Part shown: positions 2,051 to 19,789 of the stretch, piece after piece | How the letters are laid out: each line of letters opens with the position of its first letter | Numbering within the stretch: the stretch's first letter is position 1 | From: an uncultured Clostridia bacterium | GTDB lineage: Bacteria; Bacillota; Clostridia; Christensenellales; Aristaeellaceae | NCBI GenBank assembly: GCA_937907055.1 | Contig: CALCTW010000042.1 | Coordinates: forward strand, 1-21,288 | Direction of reading: 5' to 3' | DNA: 21,288 bases | Position numbers and translations under genes: made by a program | Notes under the pieces: model-generated | The model's input: the letters and a program-made list of their open reading frames with translations, nothing else | Databases searched by the model: none | What the model was told of the DNA's origin: nothing

Positions 2051-3034
2051 ATGCTGAAGAACCGTCATTTCCTTACCCTGCTCGATTTTACCCCCGATGA
2101 GATCCGTGAGTTCCTCGCCCTCGCGAAGGAATTGAAATATAAGAAAAAGAACGGCATTCCGCACCGTATGTGCGAAGGCAAGAATGTCGCGCTCATTTTT
2201 GAAAAAACATCCACCCGCACCCGCTGCGCCTTTGAGGTCGCCGCGGCGGATCTGGGCATGCATCCCGTCTATCTCGATCCCAAGTCCAGCCAGATCGGCA
2301 AGAAGGAGTCCATCGCGGATACCGCCCGTGTGCTGGGCCGCATGTTTGACGGCATCGAGTACCGCGGCTTCGGTCAGGAGATCGTGGAAGCGCTGGCCAA
2401 GTATGCCGGTGTCCCTGTCTGGAACGGCCTTACCAACGAATATCATCCTACGCAGATCCTGGCGGATATGCTGACAGTCGAAGAGCATTTCGGCTCTCTT
2501 GAGGGCATCAAGTTCGTCTATATGGGCGATGCCCGCTACAACATGGGCAATTCTCTCATGATCGGCTGCGCCAAGCTGGGCATGCATTTCGTTGCCTGCT
2601 CTCCCAAAAAGTATTTCCCCAACGCGGAACTGATCGCCAAGTGCGAAGCCATCGCGAAGGAGACCGGCGCCACACTCGAATTCAATGAGGATCCGGCCGA
2701 TGCCGTCAAGGGCGCGCATGTTATCTATACCGATGTGTGGGTCTCCATGGGTGAGCCGGATGAGATCTGGGCGGAGCGTATCCACGATCTCAAGCCCTAT
2801 CAGGTCAATCAGCAGCTGATGACCATCGCCGGCCCCCAGTGCCGCTTCATGCACTGCCTCCCCGCCTTCCACGATCTGGGCACTCAGGTCGGCCGTGAGG
2901 TGAACGAGAAGTTCGGCATGTCCGCGCTGGAGGTGACGGATGAAGTGTTCGAGGGTGAACAGTCCATCGTCTTCGATGAGGCGGAGAATCGTCTGCATAC
3001 CATCAAGGCCGTCATGGCCGCCACATTGGCATAA
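2051..3034 (+). CDS. argF: Ornithine carbamoyltransferase
   Basis: Carbamoyl-phosphate motif STRTR, HPTQ, ornithine motif DVWVSMG and HCLPAFHD. Length 327 aa. SD-like GGGAGAG about 8 nt upstream. TAA stop. Confidence 0.92.
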
Positions 3035-3150: not shown

Positions 3151-4221
3151 ATGAAAAAAGGGTATCTTGTACTCAGTAACGGACTGGTTTTTGAGGGAGA
3201 GAGGATCGGCGCCGAACAGGCGGCGATCGGTGAACTGGTCTTCACCACCGGTATGGTCGGCTATCTGGAAACGCTGACCGATCCGAGCTACGCGGGGCAG
3301 ATCGTCATGCAGACATTCCCGCTGATCGGAAATTACGGCGTGATCGAGCCCGATTTTGAAGGCAAGCCCGCGCTGAAGGGCTATGTCGTGCGCGAACTGT
3401 GCGACACTCCTTCCAATTTCCGCTCGGAATATGAGCTTGACCGCTATCTTAAGGAACAGGGCATCCCGGGCCTTTGCAATGTGGATACCCGTCAGATCAC
3501 CCGCATCATCCGCGAGGAGGGCGTGATGAATGCTGTGATCTGTGATGAGATCCCCGAAGATCTGACCGCTGTGAAGGAATTTGCCGTGAAGGGCGTTGTG
3601 AAGGCCGTCAGCTGCGCCGAAAAGCATGTAATTCCTGCCGCGGGTGAGAAAAAATACAATGTCACGCTGATCGATTACGGCGCCAAGAACAATATCCCCG
3701 GCTGTCTCAGCCACCGCGGCTGCGAGGTGACCGTGGTGCCCCAGTCCACGACGGCGGAGGAGATCCTCGCCGCTCATCCGGACGGCATCATGCTTTCCAA
3801 CGGCCCCGGCGATCCGGCTGAAAATACCTTCTGCATCGAGCAGATCCGCAAACTGATCGGCAAGGTGCCGGTATTCGGCATCTGCCTTGGCCATCAGCTG
3901 ACCGCGCTGGCCATGGGCGGCAGGACCATCAAGCTCAAGTACGGTCACCGCGGCGCCAATCAGCCGGTAAAGGAATGCAAGGGCGTACGCACCTTCATCA
4001 CCTCTCAGAATCACGGCTACGCCGTTGTGGCGGAAAGCCTGAACGGTGTGGGTGAGCAGCTTTACATCAACGCCAATGATCAAAGCTGCGAGGGCATGGA
4101 ATATCCGGGCAAGCGCTGCTTCACCGTGCAGTTCCACCCCGAAGCCTGCGCGGGCCCGCAGGATACCGAGTTTTTATTTGACCGCTTTATTGCCATGATG
4201 GGAGGTGCCGGGAATGCCTAA
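3151..4221 (+). CDS. carA: Carbamoyl-phosphate synthase small (glutaminase) subunit
   Basis: Class-I amidotransferase nucleophile GICLGHQ and the His/Glu pair in VQFHPEA. N-terminal CPSase small-chain domain. SD AGGAAGG (3138-3144). TAA stop at 4219-4221 overlaps the carB start. Confidence 0.92.
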   Translation: MKKGYLVLSNGLVFEGERIGAEQAAIGELVFTTGMVGYLETLTDPSYAGQIVMQTFPLIGNYGVIEPDFEGKPALKGYVVRELCDTPSNFRSEYELDRYLKEQGIPGLCNVDTRQITRIIREEGVMNAVICDEIPEDLTAVKEFAVKGVVKAVSCAEKHVIPAAGEKKYNVTLIDYGAKNNIPGCLSHRGCEVTVVPQSTTAEEILAAHPDGIMLSNGPGDPAENTFCIEQIRKLIGKVPVFGICLGHQLTALAMGGRTIKLKYGHRGANQPVKECKGVRTFITSQNHGYAVVAESLNGVGEQLYINANDQSCEGMEYPGKRCFTVQFHPEACAGPQDTEFLFDRFIAMMGGAGNA

Positions 4222-7200
4222 GGATCAATCGATTCGCAAAGTTCTGGTCATCGGCAGCGGCCCGATCGTCATCGGTCAGGCGGCTGAGTTCGACTATGCC
4301 GGCGCGCAGGCGTGCCGCGTGCTGCGTGATGAGGGCATCAATGTTGTCCTTGTCAATTCCAACCCTGCCACCATCATGACCGATAAGCATCTGGCGGATG
4401 AGATCTATTTAGAGCCGCTCAATGCCGAAACGGTCGCCCGTATCATCGAAAAAGAACGCCCGGACAGCCTTCTGGCCGGTCTCGGCGGTCAGACGGGCCT
4501 CACCATCGCCATGCAGCTGAGCAAGATGGGCGTGCTGGACAAGTACGGCGTGCGTCTGCTGGGCAGCGATGTGGCCGCCATCGAAAAAGCAGAAGACCGC
4601 GAGCTGTTCCGTGACACCATGAAGTCCATCGGTCAGCCCTGCGTGCCCAGCGAGATCGCCGAGGATATGGAGACCGCGCTGCGCGCCGCGAAGGAGATCG
4701 GATATCCCGTCATCGTGCGTCCGGCCTTCACGCTGGGCGGTTCCGGCGGCGGTATTGCCGAAAATGAAGACGAAATGAAGATCATTGCCAAGACCGGCCT
4801 TGATCTTTCTCCCATTACGCAGATCCTCGTTGAAAAGTGCATCTCCGGCTGGAAGGAGATCGAGTTTGAGACCATGCGCGACGGTGTGGGCAATGTCATC
4901 GCCGTCTGCTCCATGGAAAATTTCGATCCCGTGGGTATCCACACGGGCGATTCCATCGTCACCGCCCCCGCGCTGACCCTTTCCAACAAGGAATATCAGA
5001 TGCTGCGTACTGCCTCGCTGGATATGATCAGCGCGCTGGGCATCGTGGGCGGCTGCAACTGCCAGTTTGCCCTCAATCCTGATAGTTTTGAATACGCTGT
5101 TATCGAGGTCAACCCCCGTGTCAGCCGTTCTTCCGCGCTGGCTTCCAAGGCCACCGGTTATCCCATCGCCAAGATCACCACGCGCATCGCCCTCGGCTAT
5201 ACGCTGGATGAGATCCGCAACGATATCACGGGCAAGACCTGCGCCTGCTTTGAGCCCACGCTGGATTATGTGGTGTGCAAGTTCCCCAAGTGGCCGTTTG
5301 AAAAGTTCTTCGGCTCCTCCCGCAAGCTGGGCACGCAGATGAAGGCGACCGGCGAAGTCATGGCCATCGGCCAGAGCTTCGAGTGCGCCCTGATGAAGGC
5401 CGTGCGCGGCGCGGAGATCTCGCTGGACACCCTGAACGCCAAGCCTGTCAGCGATCTTTCTCTGGAGGAGCGGCTGCACATTCCGGATGACCGCCGCCTG
5501 TTCACGGTGTTTGAGGCCATCAAGGCGGGCGTCACGCTGGAGCATATCCATGATGTCACGAAGATCGACCTGTGGTATCTTGCCAAGTTAAAGAACCTGG
5601 CGGATTTTGAAGCCCGTCTGGCCGCGGAGCCCATGACGGATGAACTGTATAAGCAGGCCAAGAAGCTGGGCTATCCCGACAAGGCCATCGCGAGGCTGGC
5701 GGATGTGGCGGAATCCACCCTGCCCGGCTGCGAATTCAGCTATAAGATGGTCGATACCTGCGGCGCTGAGTTCGATGCCGAGACCCCGTATTTCTATTCC
5801 TCCACCGATGAGTGGTGTGAGAGCCGTCATCTGCCGCGCAGCGGCAAGCCGGTCGTCATGGTTCTGGGCAGCGGCCCCATCCGCATCGGTCAGGGTATCG
5901 AGTTCGATTACTCCTCCGTTCACTGCGTGTGGACCCTGCGGGAAATGGGCTATGATGTCGTGATCGTGAACAACAACCCCGAGACCGTTTCCACCGACTA
6001 TGATACGGCGGACCGCCTGTATTTTGAGCCGCTCTCTCCCGAGGATGTCATGAACATCATCAAGGTGGAAAAGCCCATCGGCGTTGTGGTGGCCTTCGGC
6101 GGACAGACCGCCATCAAGCTCACCCAGTTCCTCGATCAGAACGGCATCCGCATTCTGGGCACCAGCGCGGAATCCATCGATGTGGCGGAGGACCGCTCCC
6201 GCTTCGATGCCCTGCTTGAAAACTACGGCATTTCCCGTCCCAAGGGCTCCAGCGTGACCACCATGGAGGAAGCGCTGTCGGCGGCGGAGCGTCTGGGCTA
6301 TCCCGTGCTGCTGCGTCCGTCCTATGTCATCGGCGGTCAGAACATGACCATCAGCCGCAATCCTCAGATGACGGAGGATTATATGCGCCGCATTCTGGCG
6401 GGCGGTATCGAGAACCCCGTTCTGGTGGATAAGTACATGTCTGGTATCGAACTGGAGGTGGATGTTATCTCCGACGGCAAGGATGTGCTCATCCCCGGTA
6501 TTATGGAGCATATCGAGCGCGCCGGTGTGCACAGCGGAGACTCTATCGCCGTTTATCCTCCCTACAACCTCAACGATAAATTCCTGAACAAGATCTGTGA
6601 CCGCAGCGAGAAGCTTGCGCTCGCGCTGGGTACGCAGGGCCTTGTCAATATCCAGTACCTCATCTACGATGACGAGCTTTATGTCATCGAGGTCAATCCC
6701 CGCGCCTCCCGTACCGTGCCGTACATCAGCAAGGTGACGGGTGTGCCCATGGTGGATCTGGCCAGCAAGGTGATGCTGGGCAGCAGCCTGACCGAACTGG
6801 GCTACGGAACCGGGCTTTACCGCACGCCGCCGTACTGCGCGGTCAAGGTGCCTGTCTTCAGCTTTGAAAAGCTGAACGATGTCAACTCCATTCTGGGCCC
6901 GGAAATGAAATCCACGGGCGAGGTGCTGGGTCTGGGCAAGAGCATGGCGGAAGCCCTGTTCAAGGGCCTGACGGCAGCCGGTTTCTCTGTCGAGCGTATC
7001 CAGCACGGCAAGAACGGCATCTTCCTCAGCGTGGATGAGAACGATTATCAGGAAGTGGTCTCGCTGGGCAAGCGCTTCCACGATCTGGGCATCCGCCTGT
7101 ATGCCACCACCGGCACGGCGAAGTCCATCGCTTCTCTGGGGATCGATGTGATCGATGTGCCCAACCTGACCAAGAATAATACCATTCTGGAGCTCATGGA

Positions 7201-8251
7201 GCAGGGCAAGATCAACTACATCATCTACACCGGCGCTGTGCAGGACCGCACGGTGGGCGACTTCCGCAAGCTCCATCAGCGCGCCATGCAGCTGTCCATC
7301 CCGTGCCTCACCTCGCTGGATACGGCCTCCGCGCTGGCGGATATCATTGAAAGCCGCTTCACCATCGAGAATACCGAGCTGGTGGATATCAATGCCATGC
7401 GTCCCTGGCGGCAGAAGATCCACTTCGCCAAGATGCATTCCTGCGGTAACGATTATATCTTCATCGAGAACTTCGACGGCAAGATCACCTGCCCCGAATC
7501 CCTGTGTGTCAGCCTGTGCGCGCAGCATTACGGCATCGGCGGCGACGGGATCGTGCTGATCGAAAAGAGCAGTGTGGCGGATTGCCGTATGCGCTCCTTC
7601 AACAAGGACGGCAGCGAAGGCAAGATGGCCGGCAATAACCTGCGCTGCGTGGGCAAATATCTGTACGATAAGGGCTATGTGCGCAGCGAATACCTCTCCA
7701 TCGAGACCGCCAGCGGTGTCCACCGCATCCGCCTGTTCCTGAGGGACGGCAAGGTGAGCAGCGTGGCTGTCGATATGGGCAAGGCTACGCTGAGCGCCGC
7801 GGCGCTTCCGGCGGATGTGCCGTTTGAATCCCTGGTGGATTATCCCCTGAATGTGGCCGGTCAGGAATGGCCTGTGACCTGCGTGGGTGTGGGCAACCCG
7901 CACTGCGTGGTCTTCTGCGATGCTATCGATGGTCTGGATCTGCAGCAGATCGGACCGCAGTTTGAATACGCGCCGGTCTTCCCGCAGCGCATCAACACCG
8001 AATTCGTGCGTGTCATCAACCGCACCTCCCTGCGTATGCGCGTATGGGAACGCGGAAACGGCGAAACGCTGGCCTGCGGCCCCGGTGCCTGCGCGGCGGT
8101 CGTGGCCGCCACGGTGAAGGGCTATGTGGAAAAGGGCCGCGATATCACGGTCAGGCTGCTGGGCGGCGATCTGACTGTAAACTACACCGATGAACGCGTC
8201 ATGCTGACCGGCAGCGCCGTCATGGTGTTTGAAGGCGAATTTGAATACTGA
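4214..8251 (+). CDS. carB: Carbamoyl-phosphate synthase large subunit fused in frame to a C-terminal DapF-like (diaminopimelate epimerase fold) domain
   Basis: ATG 4214 is preceded by GGAGGTG (4201-4207) and overlaps the carA stop (ATGCCTAA). About 1061 aa of canonical CarB: two ATP-grasp halves, an oligomerisation region, and an MGS-like allosteric domain ending ..LDTASALADIIESRF. The frame then continues with no stop into ~280 aa that align end to end with DapF (FAKMHSCGNDYIFI .. GNPHCVVF .. RVWERGNGETLACGPGACAA). TGA at 8249-8251. Confidence 0.85.
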   Translation: MPKDQSIRKVLVIGSGPIVIGQAAEFDYAGAQACRVLRDEGINVVLVNSNPATIMTDKHLADEIYLEPLNAETVARIIEKERPDSLLAGLGGQTGLTIAMQLSKMGVLDKYGVRLLGSDVAAIEKAEDRELFRDTMKSIGQPCVPSEIAEDMETALRAAKEIGYPVIVRPAFTLGGSGGGIAENEDEMKIIAKTGLDLSPITQILVEKCISGWKEIEFETMRDGVGNVIAVCSMENFDPVGIHTGDSIVTAPALTLSNKEYQMLRTASLDMISALGIVGGCNCQFALNPDSFEYAVIEVNPRVSRSSALASKATGYPIAKITTRIALGYTLDEIRNDITGKTCACFEPTLDYVVCKFPKWPFEKFFGSSRKLGTQMKATGEVMAIGQSFECALMKAVRGAEISLDTLNAKPVSDLSLEERLHIPDDRRLFTVFEAIKAGVTLEHIHDVTKIDLWYLAKLKNLADFEARLAAEPMTDELYKQAKKLGYPDKAIARLADVAESTLPGCEFSYKMVDTCGAEFDAETPYFYSSTDEWCESRHLPRSGKPVVMVLGSGPIRIGQGIEFDYSSVHCVWTLREMGYDVVIVNNNPETVSTDYDTADRLYFEPLSPEDVMNIIKVEKPIGVVVAFGGQTAIKLTQFLDQNGIRILGTSAESIDVAEDRSRFDALLENYGISRPKGSSVTTMEEALSAAERLGYPVLLRPSYVIGGQNMTISRNPQMTEDYMRRILAGGIENPVLVDKYMSGIELEVDVISDGKDVLIPGIMEHIERAGVHSGDSIAVYPPYNLNDKFLNKICDRSEKLALALGTQGLVNIQYLIYDDELYVIEVNPRASRTVPYISKVTGVPMVDLASKVMLGSSLTELGYGTGLYRTPPYCAVKVPVFSFEKLNDVNSILGPEMKSTGEVLGLGKSMAEALFKGLTAAGFSVERIQHGKNGIFLSVDENDYQEVVSLGKRFHDLGIRLYATTGTAKSIASLGIDVIDVPNLTKNNTILELMEQGKINYIIYTGAVQDRTVGDFRKLHQRAMQLSIPCLTSLDTASALADIIESRFTIENTELVDINAMRPWRQKIHFAKMHSCGNDYIFIENFDGKITCPESLCVSLCAQHYGIGGDGIVLIEKSSVADCRMRSFNKDGSEGKMAGNNLRCVGKYLYDKGYVRSEYLSIETASGVHRIRLFLRDGKVSSVAVDMGKATLSAAALPADVPFESLVDYPLNVAGQEWPVTCVGVGNPHCVVFCDAIDGLDLQQIGPQFEYAPVFPQRINTEFVRVINRTSLRMRVWERGNGETLACGPGACAAVVAATVKGYVEKGRDITVRLLGGDLTVNYTDERVMLTGSAVMVFEGEFEY
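7397..8251 (+). other. DapF-like domain portion of the carB ORF (in-frame ATG 7397 could be the ancestral or an internal dapF start)
   Basis: MRPWRQKIHFAKMHSCGNDY matches the usual DapF N-terminus (M..F.KMHG.GNDF). A weak SD-like GGTGGA lies about 10 nt upstream of ATG 7397. The first catalytic Cys position is Ala (GCC, 7628-7630). The second Cys is present (TGC, 8075-8077). Confidence 0.7.
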
Positions 8252-8267
8252 TCCCCGTTTTTTTCAG

Positions 8268-8303
8268 GGCATGCTTTCCCATGCGGAAGGCATGCCTTTT
8301 TGT
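8268..8303 (+). terminator. Strong rho-independent terminator after carB-dapF
   Basis: GGCATGCTTTCC (8268-8279) pairs with GGAAGGCATGCC (8285-8296): 12 bp including one G-U, with loop CATGC, followed by TTTTTGTG. Confidence 0.85.
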
Positions 8304-8415: not shown

Positions 8416-8501
8416 GACTTTGTATGCTTTTTTGAGATCAAGCCCTCGCGGAGGGCTTAAACGCGACGTTTTTGGGGAGAAACGCCGTTGAAAGGAAAAA
8501 T

Positions 8502-10241
8502 ATGAAGCTGATACTCCGGTATATGAAACAGGTGAAATGGCGCATCCTGTTTGGGATGTTCATCAAATTCCTGGGAACGATGACCGAACTGATGGTGCCG
8601 TATGTGATGGAGCACCTGATCGATAACGTGGCGCCGAACAAGGAAATGGGGGCCATTCTGCTGTGGGGCGCCATCATGCTGCTGCTGGTGTTTGTTACGC
8701 GTGTGCTGAATGTGACGGCCAACCGCCGCGCTGTGCGCACCGCGCAGCACTGTACCTATGATCTGCGGCAGGAGCTTTTCTTCCGCACCCTGTGCCTTTC
8801 CGGCAATCAGGTGGATCAGATCGGCCTGCCCTCGCTGATCTCCCGCATGACCAGTGACAGCTATAATGTGCAGAATTTTATCCGCATGTTCCAGACCATG
8901 GGCATCCGCGGCCCCATCATCCTGCTGGGCGGCATCTGTGTAACGCTCACCATGGATGTAGGTCTGGCGGCCATCCTGTGCATCCTCGCGCCCATCATGA
9001 TCGTGCTGGTCTCCTGGATCAGCATGAAGGGCGTGCCTTTGTATAACAAGGTGCAGCAACGCATGGATGAGATCGTGCGCGTGATGCGCGAAGGTATCAC
9101 AGGCATCCGCGTGGTGAAGGCGCTGTCCAAGGAACAGCACGAGAAGGATCGCTTTGCCGCCGCCAATGACGAAATGACACGGCAGGATCGCCGCGCCGGG
9201 ATCGTAATGGCGCTGCCGGGCCCCCTGCTGACCATGGCGCTCAATATCGGTCTGGTCATCGTTGTGGTGGTGGGCGCGAACCGCGTCAACGCCGGTCTGA
9301 CCAAGCCGGGCGTGATCCTGGCGTTTCTCACCTATTTCAATATGATCCTGAACGGCGTGATGGGCGTGACGAGGATCTTCCTGCAGATGAGCAAGGCCAA
9401 CGCCAGCGCGAACCGTATCGATGAAGTGCTGCAGTGCGGCGAGGATCTGCCGGTGCTGCCGGAAGCGGAAGGCGAAAAGCCCGCGCGGGAGGGCATGATC
9501 GTGTTTGATCATGTGTCCTTTGCCTACGGCGCGGCGGAGCAGCCTGTGAATGAAGAGCGCCGCATGGCGGTGCGGGATATCACCCTGAGCGTGCAAAAGG
9601 GCGGGTCGCTGGGCATCATCGGGGCCACCGGCAGCGGCAAGACCACGCTGATCAATCTGCTGATGCGCTTTTATGATGTGACGAGCGGACACATTTATGT
9701 GAACGGAAAGGATATCCGTACATATGACCGCAACGAACTGAGACGGATGTTCGGCGTGGTGTTCCAGAATGACATGATCTTTGCCGATACGCTGGAGGAG
9801 AATATCGCCTTTGGCCGCACGGCGGATCCGGAGGAGATGCGGCGCGCGCTGCGTGACGCGCAGGCGGCTTTCGTGGATGAATATGAAGATGGTCTGCAGC
9901 ATGAGGCGGCCATCCGCGGCAGCAATTTCTCCGGCGGTCAGCGGCAGCGTCTGCTGATCAGCCGCGCGCTGGCCAAGAAGCCTTAGATTCTCATCCTGGA
10001 CGATGCCTCTTCCGCGCTGGATTACCGCACCGACGCGCAGCTGCGCCATGCCGTGCGCGAGCATTATGCTGACAGCACCACGGTGATCATCGCGCAGCGC
10101 GTGAGCAGCATCATGAGCCTGGATCATATCCTGTACCTTGAAAGCGGATCGGTCGCCGGCTACGGCACGCATGAGGAATTGCTGCGCACCTGTCCGGCAT
10201 ACCGCGCCATCTATGAGGCGCAGATGGGGGAGGGCGCGTGA
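8502..10241 (+). pseudogene. ABC exporter permease/ATPase half-transporter (degenerate-site subunit) interrupted by one in-frame TAG at 9984-9986
   Basis: ATG 8502 with AAAGGA upstream. Six-TM exporter domain, then an NBD with Walker A GATGSGKTTL and signature [8 protein letters not shown]. TAG falls in ..[18 protein letters not shown]... The same frame continues through Walker B (LILDD, Asp instead of the catalytic Glu) and the H-loop position (IIAQR) to TGA at 10239-10241. Track ORFs 8472..9986 and 10053..10241 are in the same frame. Confidence 0.8.
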
Positions 10242-10242
10242 T

Positions 10243-12012
10243 ATGGCAGGATTGACATTCTCTCAGAAGCCGCACAATACAAAAGGCACCCTCCGCCGCC
10301 TGCTCTCGTATCTGGGGCAGTATAAGCTCATGATCGCGGCGGTGCTCATTCTTTCCGTGATCGGCAATATCCTTTCCCTGATCGGCCCCGGCATGGCGGG
10401 CAATGCCATCAACGAGGCGGCGGCCGGTGAGGGACAGGTAAACTTTGAACGCGTGGGCTATTACGCCGTGCGTATGTTCATCTGCTATCTGTTCTCCTCG
10501 CTCATCACCATTGCCATCCATGTGCTCATGATGTATGTTTCGCGCTGGATCGGGCGCAAGATGCGCAAGGATGTCTTTGAAAAACTGATGCGCATGAAGG
10601 TGGGCTATTTCGATCGTCATCAGGCCGGTGATATCATCTCCCGTGTGTCGTATGATATCGATGTCATCACCACCTGTGTTTCCACCGATCTTGTACAGAT
10701 CGTGACCAGCGTGGTCACGGTGCTGGGCTCCTTTGTGATGATGATGATCATCTCCCTGCCCATGAGCGCTGTGGTCACCGTCACCATTCCGGTATCCATT
10801 CTGTACACCGTCTATATGCGAAAGAAGACCCGTCCGCTCTACTCCCGCCGCTCTAAGAATTACGGTATCATGAACGGCTTTGTGGAAGAGATGTTCGCCG
10901 GGCAGAAGACCATTCAGGCCTACGCCAATGAGGACCGCACCAATGACCGCTTCCGCACGGTGAACGGCAACGCCGCCGAGGCCTACGGCAATGCCGAGCA
11001 TTACGGCGCTTCCATCGGCCCTACCAATACCGCCATCAATAACCTGACCCTGGCCATCATCGCCACGCTGGGCAGCATTCTGTATATGCTGTATGAAGGC
11101 GTTACGCTGGGCACCATTTCGTCCTTCGTGCTGTACTCCCGCAAGTTCGCGGGCCCGATCAATGAGATCGCCAACGTGATGAACGAGATCTTCTCCGCCA
11201 TTTCCGCGGCGGAGCGTGTGTTTGAACTGCTGGATGAGGAAGAGGAACCCGCGGATGTGCCCGGCGCGCTGCTGCTGAGCGCTGTGCGCGGCGATGTGGA
11301 GATCGATCATGTCTCCTTCGGTTATGATCCCGGACGCATTATCCTGCATGATCTTTCCCTGAACGCGCCCTCCGGCCGCCTGATCGCCATCGTGGGGCCG
11401 ACAGGCGCGGGCAAGACCACCATCATCAATCTGCTGATGCGCTTCTATGACCCGGCTTCGGGCGTGATCCGCGTGGACGGGCATCCCATCTGTGAATGCA
11501 CGCTCGGCAGCCTGCGCGGCGCGTATGCCATGGTGCTGCAGGAGACCTGGGTGTTCCATGGCACCATCTTTGAAAACATCGCCTACGGCCGTGAAAACGC
11601 GACGATGGAGGAAGTGGTGGCTGCCGCCAAAGCCGCGCGCATCCATCACTTCATCATGACGCTGCCGGACGGCTATGAGACGGTGATCAACGAAGAGGGC
11701 ACCAACATCTCCAAGGGTCAGAAGCAGCTGCTCACCATCGCGCGGGCCATGCTGTATGACTGCCGCATGCTCATTCTGGATGAAGCCACCTCCAATGTGG
11801 ATACGGGCACGGAAAAGGAAGTGCAGTCCGCCATGCGTGAGCTGATGAAGGGGAAGACCTGCTTCGTGATCGCGCACCGCCTGTCTACCATCCGCAATGC
11901 CGATCACATCCTCGTGCTGGAGCACGGCGATGTGGTGGAGTCCGGCACGCATGCCGAGCTGATGGCGAAGCAGGGCGCGTACCGCAGGCTGTATTCCGCG
12001 CAGTTTGAGTGA
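10243..12012 (+). CDS. ABC exporter permease/ATPase half-transporter (consensus-site subunit)
   Basis: ATG 10243 lies 1 nt after the upstream TGA, with SD GGGGGAGGG (10226-10234). TMD plus NBD with Walker A GPTGAGKTTI, Walker B LILDEATS with catalytic Glu, and H-loop IAHRLST, but a degenerate signature ISKGQKQ. TGA at 12010-12012. Confidence 0.88.
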   Translation: MAGLTFSQKPHNTKGTLRRLLSYLGQYKLMIAAVLILSVIGNILSLIGPGMAGNAINEAAAGEGQVNFERVGYYAVRMFICYLFSSLITIAIHVLMMYVSRWIGRKMRKDVFEKLMRMKVGYFDRHQAGDIISRVSYDIDVITTCVSTDLVQIVTSVVTVLGSFVMMMIISLPMSAVVTVTIPVSILYTVYMRKKTRPLYSRRSKNYGIMNGFVEEMFAGQKTIQAYANEDRTNDRFRTVNGNAAEAYGNAEHYGASIGPTNTAINNLTLAIIATLGSILYMLYEGVTLGTISSFVLYSRKFAGPINEIANVMNEIFSAISAAERVFELLDEEEEPADVPGALLLSAVRGDVEIDHVSFGYDPGRIILHDLSLNAPSGRLIAIVGPTGAGKTTIINLLMRFYDPASGVIRVDGHPICECTLGSLRGAYAMVLQETWVFHGTIFENIAYGRENATMEEVVAAAKAARIHHFIMTLPDGYETVINEEGTNISKGQKQLLTIARAMLYDCRMLILDEATSNVDTGTEKEVQSAMRELMKGKTCFVIAHRLSTIRNADHILVLEHGDVVESGTHAELMAKQGAYRRLYSAQFE

Positions 12013-13917: not shown

Positions 13918-14784
13918 TCAGCCATTCCTGATCCTGTCAATGAACAGCCTTGCTGCCTTTGAAAAATACGCGTACTTTTTGGTCACGATAAATGCTTCGA
14001 GCTTTACTTCCGTATCAAGCGGAATGAAGCGTAAGTTACGTCCCTCTGTATTCACCAGATCAGCCAGCGTGAAGGCATACCCCAGCCCCTGTTCGACCAT
14101 GTAGGTTGCGTTGGTGATCAGGTTGTAGCTGCCAATGGCATGGAGCATACTCAGATCAACGCCGCCAAGGTCGTGTGTACCGCCCGCAATCTGCGCCGGA
14201 ACCAGGATCGGCAGATCTGCCATTTCATGAAGGGAAATGGCCGTCCGTTCCGCAAGAGAACAATCACCGGGAACAAGCAGACCAAATCGATCGTGCCTGC
14301 CGAGATCTATGTAGTCATATTTTTCATGAAAGAAGGGGCCAAGCAGCAGACCGGCATCCAGCAAGCCTTTGTCCAACCGCTCCAGCACGGCCTCCGCATC
14401 ACCGCTGTAGATATGGAAACGAACGCCGGGATGCTCCTTCTGAATATCCCGCAGCACTGCGCTGATCCTGGCCATGATGTGTGTCTCGCCGCAGCCCAGA
14501 TAGATGTCCCCTGTGATACTGCCTGTATCAGACGTGAATTCCGACTCGATCTTGTTTGTCAGGTCGACCAATTCCTGCGCCCGCGCACGAAACAGCACGC
14601 CGTCTTCTGTCAGCAGCGTGCTTTTATTGGTGCGCTTGAACAGTTTGATGCCCAGCTGCTTTTCCAGCGCGGCGATCTGTGCAGAAAGAGCAGGCTGCGA
14701 AACATGCAGCTCTGCCGCCGCCTTGGTCATGTTCTGTTCTCTGGCAACCACCAGGAAGTATTCTACCAGACGTCCATCCAACAT
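13918..14784 (-). CDS. LysR-family transcriptional regulator
   Basis: N-terminal wHTH (LVEYFLVVAREQNMTKAAAELHVSQPALSAQIAALEKQLGIKLFKR) and a C-terminal substrate-binding domain. ATG 14784 with GGGAGG 8 nt upstream. TGA at 13918-13920. Divergent from the operon starting at 14924. Confidence 0.9.
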   Translation of the reverse strand: MLDGRLVEYFLVVAREQNMTKAAAELHVSQPALSAQIAALEKQLGIKLFKRTNKSTLLTEDGVLFRARAQELVDLTNKIESEFTSDTGSITGDIYLGCGETHIMARISAVLRDIQKEHPGVRFHIYSGDAEAVLERLDKGLLDAGLLLGPFFHEKYDYIDLGRHDRFGLLVPGDCSLAERTAISLHEMADLPILVPAQIAGGTHDLGGVDLSMLHAIGSYNLITNATYMVEQGLGYAFTLADLVNTEGRNLRFIPLDTEVKLEAFIVTKKYAYFSKAARLFIDRIRNG

Positions 14785-14844
14785 CGAATCTACCTCCCTC
14801 TGCATGTATTATAGCAAATGCGCCATGTTTTGCAATAAGAAATC

Positions 14845-18844: not shown

Positions 18845-19789
18845 ATGGCTGTATCAAAATGTGTTTCCCTGTCTGCCGAGAACCATCTTGCAGCAAATGA
18901 TCCCGGTTTGAGTTTCCGGATTGATGAAACCGGCTGCAACAGTACGCCGGATTTTCCTGTTGCGGTATACCTCGATAACGTGACAACAGACTATGTCAAC
19001 TGGCACTGGCATGATGAGATCGAGGTGGGTTTCATTGTGGAAGGTTCAGTCGTAGTCGGCAGCGGAACAAGTAAAGCGACACTGACAAGCGGAGATGTAT
19101 TCTTTGTCAATTCCGGCGTACTGCACGCCATGTACAACGCCTCAGCTCCAGAAAGTGCGATCTTCAAATCCATCACATTCAACGGGTCTGTCGTCGGCGG
19201 AGAGCAGAACAGTATCTATTGGCAGAAATACCTGAAGCCTATTCTCAACGCCGCACATTTCAGAAGCCTGGTATTGCCAGCGGGCAGCGAGCACCATGCC
19301 GCTGTCATACCCCTGTTGTCTGAGATTTGGGAACTGGTAGCGCAGGAACCTGAACACTACGAGATCCTTGTTCGCAATGGCCTTTCCAATTTGGTTTGCA
19401 TTTTGCTCCAGATTCAGAAGGAAGCAAGTGATGATCCATCGCAAAGCGCGTATAGCCTCCGACTGGAAAGACGCCTGCATCAAATGTTGGATCATATTCA
19501 TGTCCACTATGGCGAACACATCACGCTGGATGACCTGGCCAGCACCGCAGCCATCAGCAAAACGGAAGTGATGCGCTGTTTCAAGAGCATCATTGGCAAG
19601 TCACCGATACGCTATCTGATGGAATACAGACTTCAGCAGGCAGCCTATCTTCTGTTGCATACGGAGAACACAGTGCAGCAGATCGGTGAATGCTGCGGGT
19701 TTGAGGATAACAGCTATTTTGCCAAGTCCTTCCGTGTGATGTATCAGGTGACACCCACCGAATACCGACGGAGAAGATTTCAAGAATGA
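18845..19789 (+). CDS. AraC-family transcriptional regulator with N-terminal cupin sensor domain
   Basis: C-terminal double HTH (ITLDDLASTAAISKTEVMRCFKSIIGKSPIRYLMEYRLQQAAYLL..IGECCGFEDNSYFAKSFR). N-terminal cupin (WHWHDEIEVGFIVEGS..GDVFFVNSGVLH). SD AAAGGAG. Divergent from the DUF1349 gene. Confidence 0.88.
   Translation: MAVSKCVSLSAENHLAANDPGLSFRIDETGCNSTPDFPVAVYLDNVTTDYVNWHWHDEIEVGFIVEGSVVVGSGTSKATLTSGDVFFVNSGVLHAMYNASAPESAIFKSITFNGSVVGGEQNSIYWQKYLKPILNAAHFRSLVLPAGSEHHAAVIPLLSEIWELVAQEPEHYEILVRNGLSNLVCILLQIQKEASDDPSQSAYSLRLERRLHQMLDHIHVHYGEHITLDDLASTAAISKTEVMRCFKSIIGKSPIRYLMEYRLQQAAYLLLHTENTVQQIGECCGFEDNSYFAKSFRVMYQVTPTEYRRRRFQE

Follow-up and report, generated by a model that had tools for sequence, protein, structure and literature searches.

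What is the role of a domain that has the fold of diaminopimelate epimerase (DapF), lacks the first of the two catalytic cysteines of this enzyme, and is fused to the C terminus of a carbamoyl-phosphate synthetase (CPSase)? The question is raised by the gene carB::dapF* in a stretch of 21,288 nucleotides from an uncultured Clostridia bacterium (family Aristaeellaceae; contig CALCTW010000042.1 of assembly GCA_937907055.1), to be referred to as the window. The last 277 codons of this carB, which is located in an arginine operon, appear to encode a folded DapF-type domain that would be incapable of the canonical, two-thiol epimerisation of LL- and meso-diaminopimelate (DAP). The first cysteine is replaced by alanine throughout a clade of related fusions (to be referred to as the Ala clade), in which the residues of the ligand pocket are maintained. 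We propose that the domain is a selected, non-epimerising, ligand-binding module of an arginine-pathway CPSase, derived from DapF. The arguments for and against this role are, in our judgment, evenly balanced.

Structure of the fusion protein

The fusion gene and the relevant parts of its product are as follows.

4214..8251, + strand: carB::dapF* fusion gene; the open reading frame (ORF) opens with GTG at 4205; 1345-1348 codons plus stop
7055..7312, + strand: MGS-like allosteric domain of CarB, residues 951-1036 (PF02142)
7358..7417, + strand: CarB C-terminal tail and short junction (NTELVDINAMRPWRQKI) into strand 1 of DapF (from the alignment to the homologous fusion P0245, see below)
7418..8248, + strand: DapF-fold domain, residues 1072-1348, without the first catalytic Cys (TIGR00652, AF2, Foldseek)

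The translation of the ORF at 4205..8251 on the forward strand was read as one unbroken frame of 1348 codons, and the start codon is likely the ATG at 4214. A look-up in public assemblies gave no record of the exact protein with either start codon. The CarB portion is a full-length equivalog match to NF003671 (1445.6 bits, cutoff 599, residues 4-1051). Matches are found to all the CarB domains (PF02786 and PF25596, two copies each, the oligomerisation domain PF02787, and the MGS domain PF02142), both ATP-grasp halves are present, and carA is adjacent to the gene, as is characteristic of carB. The Met and Arg residues of the 'MR' in the junction are nearly invariant among the aligned domains of the Ala type.

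The C-terminal domain is recognized by the DapF equivalog model TIGR00652, with 266 bits for the isolated domain (cutoff 114.65) and 260.9 bits over residues 1072-1346 of the full protein. Two stretches of it are matched by PF01678 (E = 1.3e-54). The AF2 model of the domain, based on 70 homologues, has a predicted local distance difference test (pLDDT) score of 93.6 and a predicted template-modeling (pTM) score of 0.91, and shows the two-lobe, pseudo-symmetric fold of DapF. A search with Foldseek finds a ligand-bound DapF (9mro_A) as the best match, with template-modeling (TM) scores of 0.90/0.92 and a root-mean-square deviation of 1.8 Å, and the complex of DapF with LL-aziDAP (3ejx) has a TM score of 0.90 to the model. 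Structures of the PhzF and proline racemase families are ranked far behind DapF. The PhzF-type sequence and the Glu general acid/base of PhzF (E45) are absent from the domain (Foldseek TM score 0.72, identity 14-16%), and PF02567 (PhzF) gives only faint matches, on some of the homologues. A two-domain AF2 model that includes the allosteric domain of CarB has a pTM of 0.66, with a confidence below 50 for the junction tail.

The active site of the DapF-type domain

DapF catalyzes epimerisation with two bases, Cys73 and Cys217, located on opposite faces, and the loss of either thiol abolishes the reaction. Mutants of DapF with Ala in place of Cys are reportedly inactive (Koo et al. 2000). The C73S and C217S mutants of DapF (PDB entries 2q9h and 2q9j) were present in the structure search. 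Direct reading of the window gives the following residues at the corresponding positions.

7628..7630, + strand: Ala (GCC), codon 1142, at the position of catalytic Cys73 (E. coli/H. influenzae numbering)
7637..7639, + strand: Asn (AAC), at the position of Gly76, changing CGNG to AGNN
8075..8077, + strand: Cys (TGC), codon 1291, the equivalent of Cys217; the second catalytic thiol is kept, at the N terminus of helix B
8081..8083, + strand: Pro (CCC), codon 1293, at the position of Ser219/Thr

The first catalytic thiol, expected at the N terminus of helix A, is absent, and the Ala residue is located in the segment FNKDGSEGKM-A-GNNLRCVGKY. The Pro residue, in the segment ERGNGETLA-C-G-P-GACAA, takes the place of the carboxylate-binding Ser/Thr after Cys217-Gly, which is missing in the window but found in the rest of the family. 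With phmmer, the segments 'mrsfnkdgsegkmagnnlrcvgkyly' and 'wergngetlacgpgacaavva' align without gaps to B. anthracis DapF (2otn), and also to the cyanobacterial DapF (9mro). The sequence-only reading of this DNA had described the Ala residue, the retained second Cys, the gapless alignment to Bacillus DapF and the intact GNDY, GNPHCV and ERGxGET motifs, and all of these observations are borne out.

The equivalents of the substrate-contacting residues (N19, N70, N81, N168, N201, E219 and R220 in the numbering of the domain) are all present. Based on the motifs, residues N19, N70, G80, N81, N168 and H170 presumably correspond to N11, N64, G74, N75, N157 and H159 of the H. influenzae enzyme, and N201, E219, R220, C228 and G229 to N190, E208, R209, C217 and G218. 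The residues in contact with DAP in that enzyme, which we take from Pillai et al. 2006, would be N11, N64, N75, N157, N190, E208 and R209.

Conservation in the Ala clade

A search with the domain returned 120 proteins with 58-77% identity, mostly contig-end fragments with the MGS and DAP_epimerase domains, from metagenome-assembled genomes (MAGs) of Oscillospiraceae and Clostridia. With the whole protein as the query, 120 fused, full-length proteins of about 1343 residues were obtained, with 77-85% identity, the closest relative of the window protein being 85% identical. Moreover, one genome per GTDB species was scanned, which gave about 205 matching stretches, and the best 80 loci were examined. 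The 81 further loci that were looked at include 80 from species-representative genomes, all of uncultured gut or rumen Clostridia.

The Ala residue is shared by essentially all of these relatives. It is present at the Cys73 position in 107 of 107 aligned domains and at 81 of the 81 further loci, the best 80 of which are all fused and all have AGN[NS] and CGTGA. Every fragment with a recognizable motif (113/113) reads A-G-N-[N/A/S/C/G]. The full-length proteins mostly have AGN[NS], with Ala in about 114 of the 120 and Gly in five (Ala or Gly in 119). All four Ala codons are in use in 73 full-length genes (GCG 28, GCC 25, GCA 18, GCT 2), which indicates synonymous turnover under an amino-acid constraint. 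Only Ala or Gly is found at this site in close relatives, though Ser, Thr, Val, Pro, Asp and Glu are equally one step away. The second Cys is present in 105 of the 107 aligned domains (codons TGC 67, TGT 6), and its conservation in the clade is 98-100%. The pocket residues N19, N70, G80, N81, N168, H170, N201, E219, R220, C228 and G229 are 95-100% conserved, as counted in the 107 aligned Ala-type domains and then in 287 distinct sequences.

The other two substitutions in the window have a different standing. At the Gly76 position, the Ala clade has Asn (78%), Ala (9%) or Ser (9%), as compared to Gly (54-57%) and Ala (43-46%) in two-cysteine DapFs. Canonical DapFs normally vary between GNG and GNA, and only Asn and Ser at this position are specific to the clade. 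The Pro residue (CGPGA) is found in the window alone among more than 400 related sequences. The other full-length or genome-derived relatives have Thr or Ser (97% and 3% across the Ala clade), the Thr codons are ACC 41, ACG 23 and ACA 8, and CCC is one substitution away from ACC. Judged from this distribution, the Pro could be a private mutation or an error, outside the selected design, and it could further weaken carboxylate binding.

These comparisons sort out the interpretation in the sequence-only reading, which had taken the three substitutions together as the mark of a pseudo-enzyme or repurposed domain rather than of random decay. That interpretation agrees with the data for the Ala, which is clade-wide, selected, and accompanied by an intact pocket. 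The earlier argument that the Ala is not a miscall or a strain-specific error is upheld by its presence in all close homologues, with the codons GCG, GCC, GCA and GCT. The Asn of GNN is indeed there, but it is less diagnostic than was assumed, GNA being normal in canonical DapFs. The Pro codon is likewise present but does not belong to the pattern, as it is private to the contig and one nucleotide from ACC.

The domain is under purifying selection. Its pairwise dN/dS ratio (nonsynonymous to synonymous substitution rates, Nei-Gojobori), calculated for pairs with dS below 1.5, is about 0.20, as compared to 0.14 for CarB and 0.29 for the junction; the median proportion of synonymous differences (pS) is 0.74 and dS is near saturation, so that the ratios are approximate. 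In distance from the fusion ancestor, the Ala-clade tips exceed the two-cysteine tips by only about 13%, and therefore there has been no burst of relaxed evolution in the Ala clade.

The positions that distinguish the Ala clade from two-cysteine DapFs are F23, E25, N26, C33, C38, C42, E57, A79, N82, R117, R206 and Y285, and there is no obvious substitute acid/base near position 79 among them. The Cys residue of 'SCGND', Cys17, was considered as a relocated catalytic residue and rejected. It is present in 78-86% of the Ala clade, yet also in 49% of the two-cysteine fusions and 27% of the standalone DapFs. A nearby Cys that structurally replaces Cys73, which the sequence-only reading had raised as a possible refutation, was thus not found.

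A C-x4-C-x3-C motif (TCPESLCVSLC, residues 1096, 1101 and 1105, window positions 7487-7519) is located in the first helix of the domain and is 91-98% conserved in the Ala clade. The equivalent sites in other DapFs are mainly Asn, Ser or Asp (position 33, residue 1096) and Ser or Ala (positions 38 and 42, residues 1101 and 1105). A metal site formed by Cys33, Cys38 and Cys42 was considered, but buried substitutions are a simpler explanation, since their counterparts in other DapFs are mainly small or polar.

Several database records of these relatives should be read with care. In locus L001, a scaffold gap of 10 N (positions 7921-7930) shifts the frame, as a result of which carB (1047 aa) and a '284-aa DapF' are called as separate genes. 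Three 284-aa Ala-type proteins (P0011, P0014 and P0018) appear to be standalone; P0014, from L001 and the one that was checked, is this scaffold-gap artefact, and other apparent standalone Ala-type DapFs can have the same origin. Four loci (L019, L020, L021 and L027) carry an arginine-operon carB::dapF* of the Clostridia type, with 70-71% identity to the window. Their record titles name Phascolarctobacterium succinatutens, Collinsella aerofaciens, Escherichia coli and a Bacteroidaceae bacterium ('cleanbin' isolates); these names look wrong, or the bins are contaminated. Five homologues of 1500-1512 aa (P0144, P0152, P0165, P0189 and P0191) are about 160 aa longer and have a CPSase_sm_chain match. 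They may be carA-carB read-through fusions, or start miscalls at the overlapping carA/carB junction.

Evolution of the fusion

An exhaustive HMMER search over representative proteins at 50% identity finds fused proteins that retain both cysteines: P0245 (1349 aa, with CGNA and CGTGA), P0242, P0246 and P0268. P0245 has 61% identity to the window protein from end to end, with a shared junction and no gap there. A profile of the two-cysteine fusions finds 120 more fusion fragments, about 96 of them with both cysteines. The named sources of these fusions include Ruminococcus bicirculans, R. difficilis, Acutalibacteraceae and Treponema MAGs.

A rough neighbor-joining tree of 338 representative domains was calculated after masking of the catalytic columns. 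The Ala clade (137 Ala and 4 Gly) is monophyletic in this tree, its sister is the clade of two-cysteine fusions, and the standalone DapFs are located outside. The inferred root state at the first catalytic site is Cys. The sequences thus indicate that a single fusion event joined carB to dapF, that the ancestor in which it took place had both DapF cysteines, and that the fusion predates the loss of the Cys. With an ancestral fusion and two-cysteine sisters, the present case is one of catalysis lost inside an older fusion.

The loss in the Ala clade is not the only one. About six additional losses of the first Cys are seen in the sister clade, with Gly, Ala, Ser or Phe as the replacement, and in some proteins both cysteines are changed to Ser (SGNA and SGTSA). 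With the main Ala clade excluded, the first Cys is absent from 19 of 82 fused representatives as compared to 2 of 115 standalone ones (Fisher p = 1.4e-6), counts that are phylogenetically non-independent. This pattern of substitution indicates that catalysis is dispensable in the fused state. The two-cysteine fused domain is probably a working DapF, because dapL, the pathway partner of DapF, directly follows it in R. bicirculans.

Other DapF fusions were also observed, all of the two-cysteine type. They include a class-I/II aminotransferase::DapF (P0377), a DapF::Mur ligase (P0372), an ATP-grasp fragment::DapF (P0386), and a 687-aa protein (P0294) in which the N-terminal half has no assigned family. 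P0478 and P0479 (558 aa, ENA) consist of the N-terminal 246 residues of a serine hydroxymethyltransferase, a CarB tail and a two-cysteine DapF domain, with the joint at the CarB motif '...LCLTSIDTANA...', and represent an assembly chimera or a rearranged fusion. The 90% cluster of P0480 contains, beside fusion fragments, entries of 288 aa that are named 'diaminopimelate epimerase', from Ruminococcus difficilis/sp. M6 and Lachnoclostridium sp. MSJ-17; in these cultured strains they are maybe due to gene fission or internal-start calls. A literature search found no paper on a CarB::DapF fusion of either cysteine type, or on a one-cysteine DapF or pseudo-DapF.

The allosteric site of CarB and the genomic context

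There are also differences between the two fusion types in the allosteric domain of CarB, which was aligned to residues 942-1054 of E. coli CarB. The window has Tyr, Asn, Tyr and Gly at the positions of K954, K993, N1015 and T1017, respectively. The distribution at these positions is given below.

E. coli K954 position: Lys in 25/26 two-cysteine fusions; Tyr in 64/73 of the Ala clade
E. coli K993 position: Lys in 26/26 two-cysteine fusions; Asn in 56/73 of the Ala clade
E. coli N1015 position: Ser in two-cysteine fusions; Tyr in the Ala clade
E. coli T1017 position: Ser in two-cysteine fusions; Gly in the Ala clade

Lys954 and Lys993 of E. coli CarB are, as we take it from Thoden et al. 1999, ligands to the phosphate group of uridine monophosphate (UMP) and inosine monophosphate (IMP). 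Phosphate ligands of this E. coli type are absent at the two positions in the window. The substitutions suggest that the clade without the first DapF Cys has also lost, or remodelled, its nucleotide effector site.

Upstream and downstream of the fusion gene, the following features belong to the same local unit.

2051..3034, + strand: argF, ornithine carbamoyltransferase (PF02729 and PF00185), the first gene of the local argF-carA-carB::dapF* unit
3151..4221, + strand: carA, the small (glutaminase) subunit of CPSase (PF00988 and PF00117); its 3' end overlaps the start of carB
8266..8303, + strand: intrinsic-terminator-like hairpin (8266-8298) and T-run closing the arg/car unit, with a 14-bp stem containing 7 GC pairs, followed by TTTGTGTG

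The carB frame opens (GTG 4205, ATG 4214) before the stop codon of carA (4219-4221), an overlap that is typical of translational coupling. Among the related loci, 34 have the order argF-carA-carB::dapF* and about 26 the longer order argJ-argB-argD-argF-carA-carB::dapF*, and arginine genes form the context in the window as well as at about 60 of 73 related loci. The genomic association with DAP or lysine genes that is typical of DapF is absent from the window.

None of the three two-cysteine fusions examined is in an arginine operon. In R. bicirculans (GCA_037437605.1), the next gene is dapL (TIGR03542, 507.5 bits, cutoff 364.7); the second fusion has a gene for a GntR regulator and then the pur operon downstream of it; and the third is located between purA and nadE. 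From its sequence and neighbors, the Ala clade looks like an arginine-dedicated CPSase, in which the nucleotide site was remodelled alongside the loss of DapF catalysis. Possibly, genomes with the Ala type also carry a two-cysteine fusion, and the Ala type is their arginine-specific paralogue; a comparison based on the proximity of NCBI accessions gave no informative pairs of Ala-type and Cys-type fusions in the same genome.

One Ala-type locus (L081) has a different organization, gltD-glmS-dapL-pyrG-carA-carB::dapF*, with dapL located 2.7 kb upstream of the fusion. It is the only DapL found when 80 loci were searched by tblastn.

Possible functions of the domain

In the Ala clade, from uncultured gut and rumen Clostridia and Dysosmobacter, the base on the L face (Cys73) has been replaced by Ala, rarely by Gly, and Gly76 by Asn, Ala or Ser. 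The domain may still close on a DAP-like diamino-dicarboxylate or a related amino acid without turnover, and could serve as a regulatory sensor and/or an oligomerisation element of an arginine-dedicated CPSase. Epimerisation of DAP would then be carried out by the product of another gene, such as a standalone dapF, a two-cysteine carB::dapF paralogue, ddh or dapF2. A pyridoxal phosphate-dependent alternative epimerase, DapF2, has been described (PMC9026213; bioRxiv 10.1101/2024.10.14.618325), and the E. coli delta-dapF strain has no growth defect (bioRxiv 10.1101/2024.10.14.618325). A more specific version, in which the dead DapF domain is an allosteric sensor of the arginine-pathway CPSase and replaces the nucleotide site of the MGS domain with its lost lysines, is put forward only tentatively.

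Several observations weigh against the proposal of a ligand-binding module. The ligand, the regulatory effect and the CarB interface of the domain are all putative, and there is no obvious physiological reason for an arginine-pathway CPSase to sense DAP. The two-domain AF2 model predicts no fixed contact between the domain and CarB. The tblastn searches with canonical DapFs, DapL and C. glutamicum Ddh, which covered the 80 loci with flanks of ±10 kb, detected neither a second DapF nor a Ddh. The presence of dapL at L081 implies that this lineage makes LL-DAP and needs an epimerase, unless LL-DAP is used in the wall and lysine is imported; walls with LL-DAP have been reported for Christensenella. 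The strict retention of Cys217 is not obviously needed for mere binding, could point to residual chemistry, and leaves room for one-base chemistry. The saturation of dS and the roughness of the tree also reduce the weight of the evolutionary evidence.

The alternatives draw on the same observations. The domain might still be the DAP epimerase of the cell, with Cys217 and a substitute base, either a water held by the Asn at the Gly76 site or another residue. The entire DAP pocket and Cys217 are invariant, the DapF equivalog model is passed, dapL is located beside the car genes in L081, and no second dapF is located within ±10 kb at the 80 loci, as would be expected in that case. However, no new conserved acid/base is present near position 79, the Cys of 'SCGND' is also frequent in two-cysteine DapFs, the Cys73 site tolerates Gly as well as Ala, and the double losses in the sister clade show that a fused domain is kept without catalysis. 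Removal of Cys73, as in the C73S mutant, is moreover understood to abolish epimerisation in the DapFs that have been studied, and we regard a residual epimerase as highly unlikely. A new one-base enzyme, which would catalyze an elimination, a dehydration or a stereospecific proton exchange on a DAP-like or arginine-pathway amino acid, would account for the retention of Cys217 opposite a residue that is always small, and could be accommodated by the stable arg-operon context and by the proline racemase/3-hydroxyproline (3-Hyp) dehydratase branch among the structural neighbors (6r76, 4k7g). We know of no step in arginine synthesis that needs such chemistry, the residues for recognition of the distal L-amino acid (N70, N168, N201 and R220) are unchanged, giving no sign of a new substrate, and the replacement is Ala or Gly rather than a polar residue like the Thr of the dehydratases. 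This possibility is quite unlikely in our view.

DapF is a dimer, and the domain could also be a structural passenger or scaffold, the body of which came to be needed for the folding or oligomerisation of CarB, with ligand binding being irrelevant. The recurrent loss of the catalytic Cys in fused domains, with double losses included, the very short and conserved junction, and selection over the whole domain at a level similar to that of CarB are all consistent with a scaffold. In such a domain, however, the pocket should have eroded at the depth of this clade (58-85% identity, saturated dS), yet about 11 ligand-contact positions are 95-100% kept, and AF2 predicts no defined contact with the allosteric domain. 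A scaffold is therefore an unlikely explanation, though one to be kept in view. Errors of sequencing or assembly, or the decay of an allele in a single strain, are hardly credible as the origin of the substitutions. The Pro alone would fit an error, being unique to the window contig and one base from ACC, with the closest relative only 85% identical. The Ala is present in all relatives, in many independent assemblies and with four codons, and the frame is intact over 1348 codons.

If the sensor proposal is true, LL- or meso-DAP, a precursor of the cell wall and lysine, or a related amino acid would directly tune the supply of carbamoyl phosphate, and the conversion of an enzyme into a sensor would have been caught beside a still-active sister lineage. 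Sensing of a ligand would represent a new regulation of CPSase and an unexpected metabolic link from cell-wall and lysine precursors to arginine synthesis. There are also consequences for annotation, since the curated DapF equivalog model accepts the domain and NCBI calls fragments of these genes 'diaminopimelate epimerase'. As a result, pathway reconstructions for hundreds of species of gut and rumen Clostridia may count a non-functional epimerase and mis-predict lysine/DAP prototrophy. The proteins form a natural series, from standalone DapF through active CarB::DapF to fusions that repeatedly lost the catalytic Cys but kept the pocket, which shows how pseudoenzyme domains arise inside multidomain enzymes. 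The Ala type also occurs in the cultured genus Dysosmobacter, which makes experiments feasible.

Other genes in the window

Downstream of the terminator there is a pair of genes for MsbA-like ATP-binding cassette (ABC) exporter half-transporters (8472-9986 and 10138-12012, + strand). The window also contains genes for a TtcA-like PP-loop ATPase (900-1781), a LysR regulator (13918-14805, - strand) and an AraC-type regulator (18845-19789). None of these genes is related to DAP or arginine. Very long antisense ORFs are found opposite carB and other genes, for example one of 771 aa at 5588..7903 on the - strand. Their translations are of low complexity, rich in Gly, Ala, Arg and His, and have no family support, and these ORFs are compositional artefacts of a GC-rich coding strand.

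Comparison with known systems

The DapFs of Firmicutes and cyanobacteria (EC 5.1.1.7; 2otn, 9mro) are the closest to the domain in fold and sequence. The two-lobe fold is shared, with TM scores of 0.85-0.92, and the identity is 38-42% to the top structures in Foldseek and about 45-52% to the closest standalone DapFs in HMMER. Also in common are the GND, FN.DGS, GNPHC, N.EF and ERG.GET motifs and, where helix B begins, the second catalytic Cys. In contrast to these enzymes, the domain has Ala for the first Cys, Asn for Gly76 and Pro for the Thr after Cys217, and it is fused to the C terminus of CarB in an arginine operon instead of being located with dap/lys genes.

The two-cysteine CarB::DapF proteins of Ruminococcus, Acutalibacteraceae and other Clostridia, the sister group, have the same architecture and junction, with 61% identity in the case of P0245. 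They differ in keeping CGN[GA], CGTG and the Lys residues at the K954/K993 positions, and are found beside dapL, pur genes or purA/nadE rather than arg genes.

More distant members of the superfamily provide parallels. One DapF homologue, the O-ureidoserine racemase DcsC (7vdy; 30% identity, TM score 0.86-0.88), has a ureido amino acid as its substrate, which connects it in theme with carbamoyl chemistry. Both thiols are retained in DcsC, which is part of a cycloserine cluster, and the domain in the window is much nearer to true DapF. The trans-3-Hyp dehydratases arose from proline racemases by the loss of one of the two catalytic cysteines. These enzymes (6r76, 4k7g) belong to the same fold superfamily; the identity to the domain is 15-17%, with a TM score of about 0.7, which places the domain outside their family. 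The dehydratases have a Thr replacement and a known new reaction, whereas the domain has Ala or Gly and no known reaction.

E. coli DapF activates RppH by protein contact, independent of epimerisation (PMC6061791; PMC4227774). That enzyme is a free, active and moonlighting DapF, unlike the CarB-fused domain with its lost catalytic residue, and it provides a precedent for a DapF body that works through protein-protein contact.

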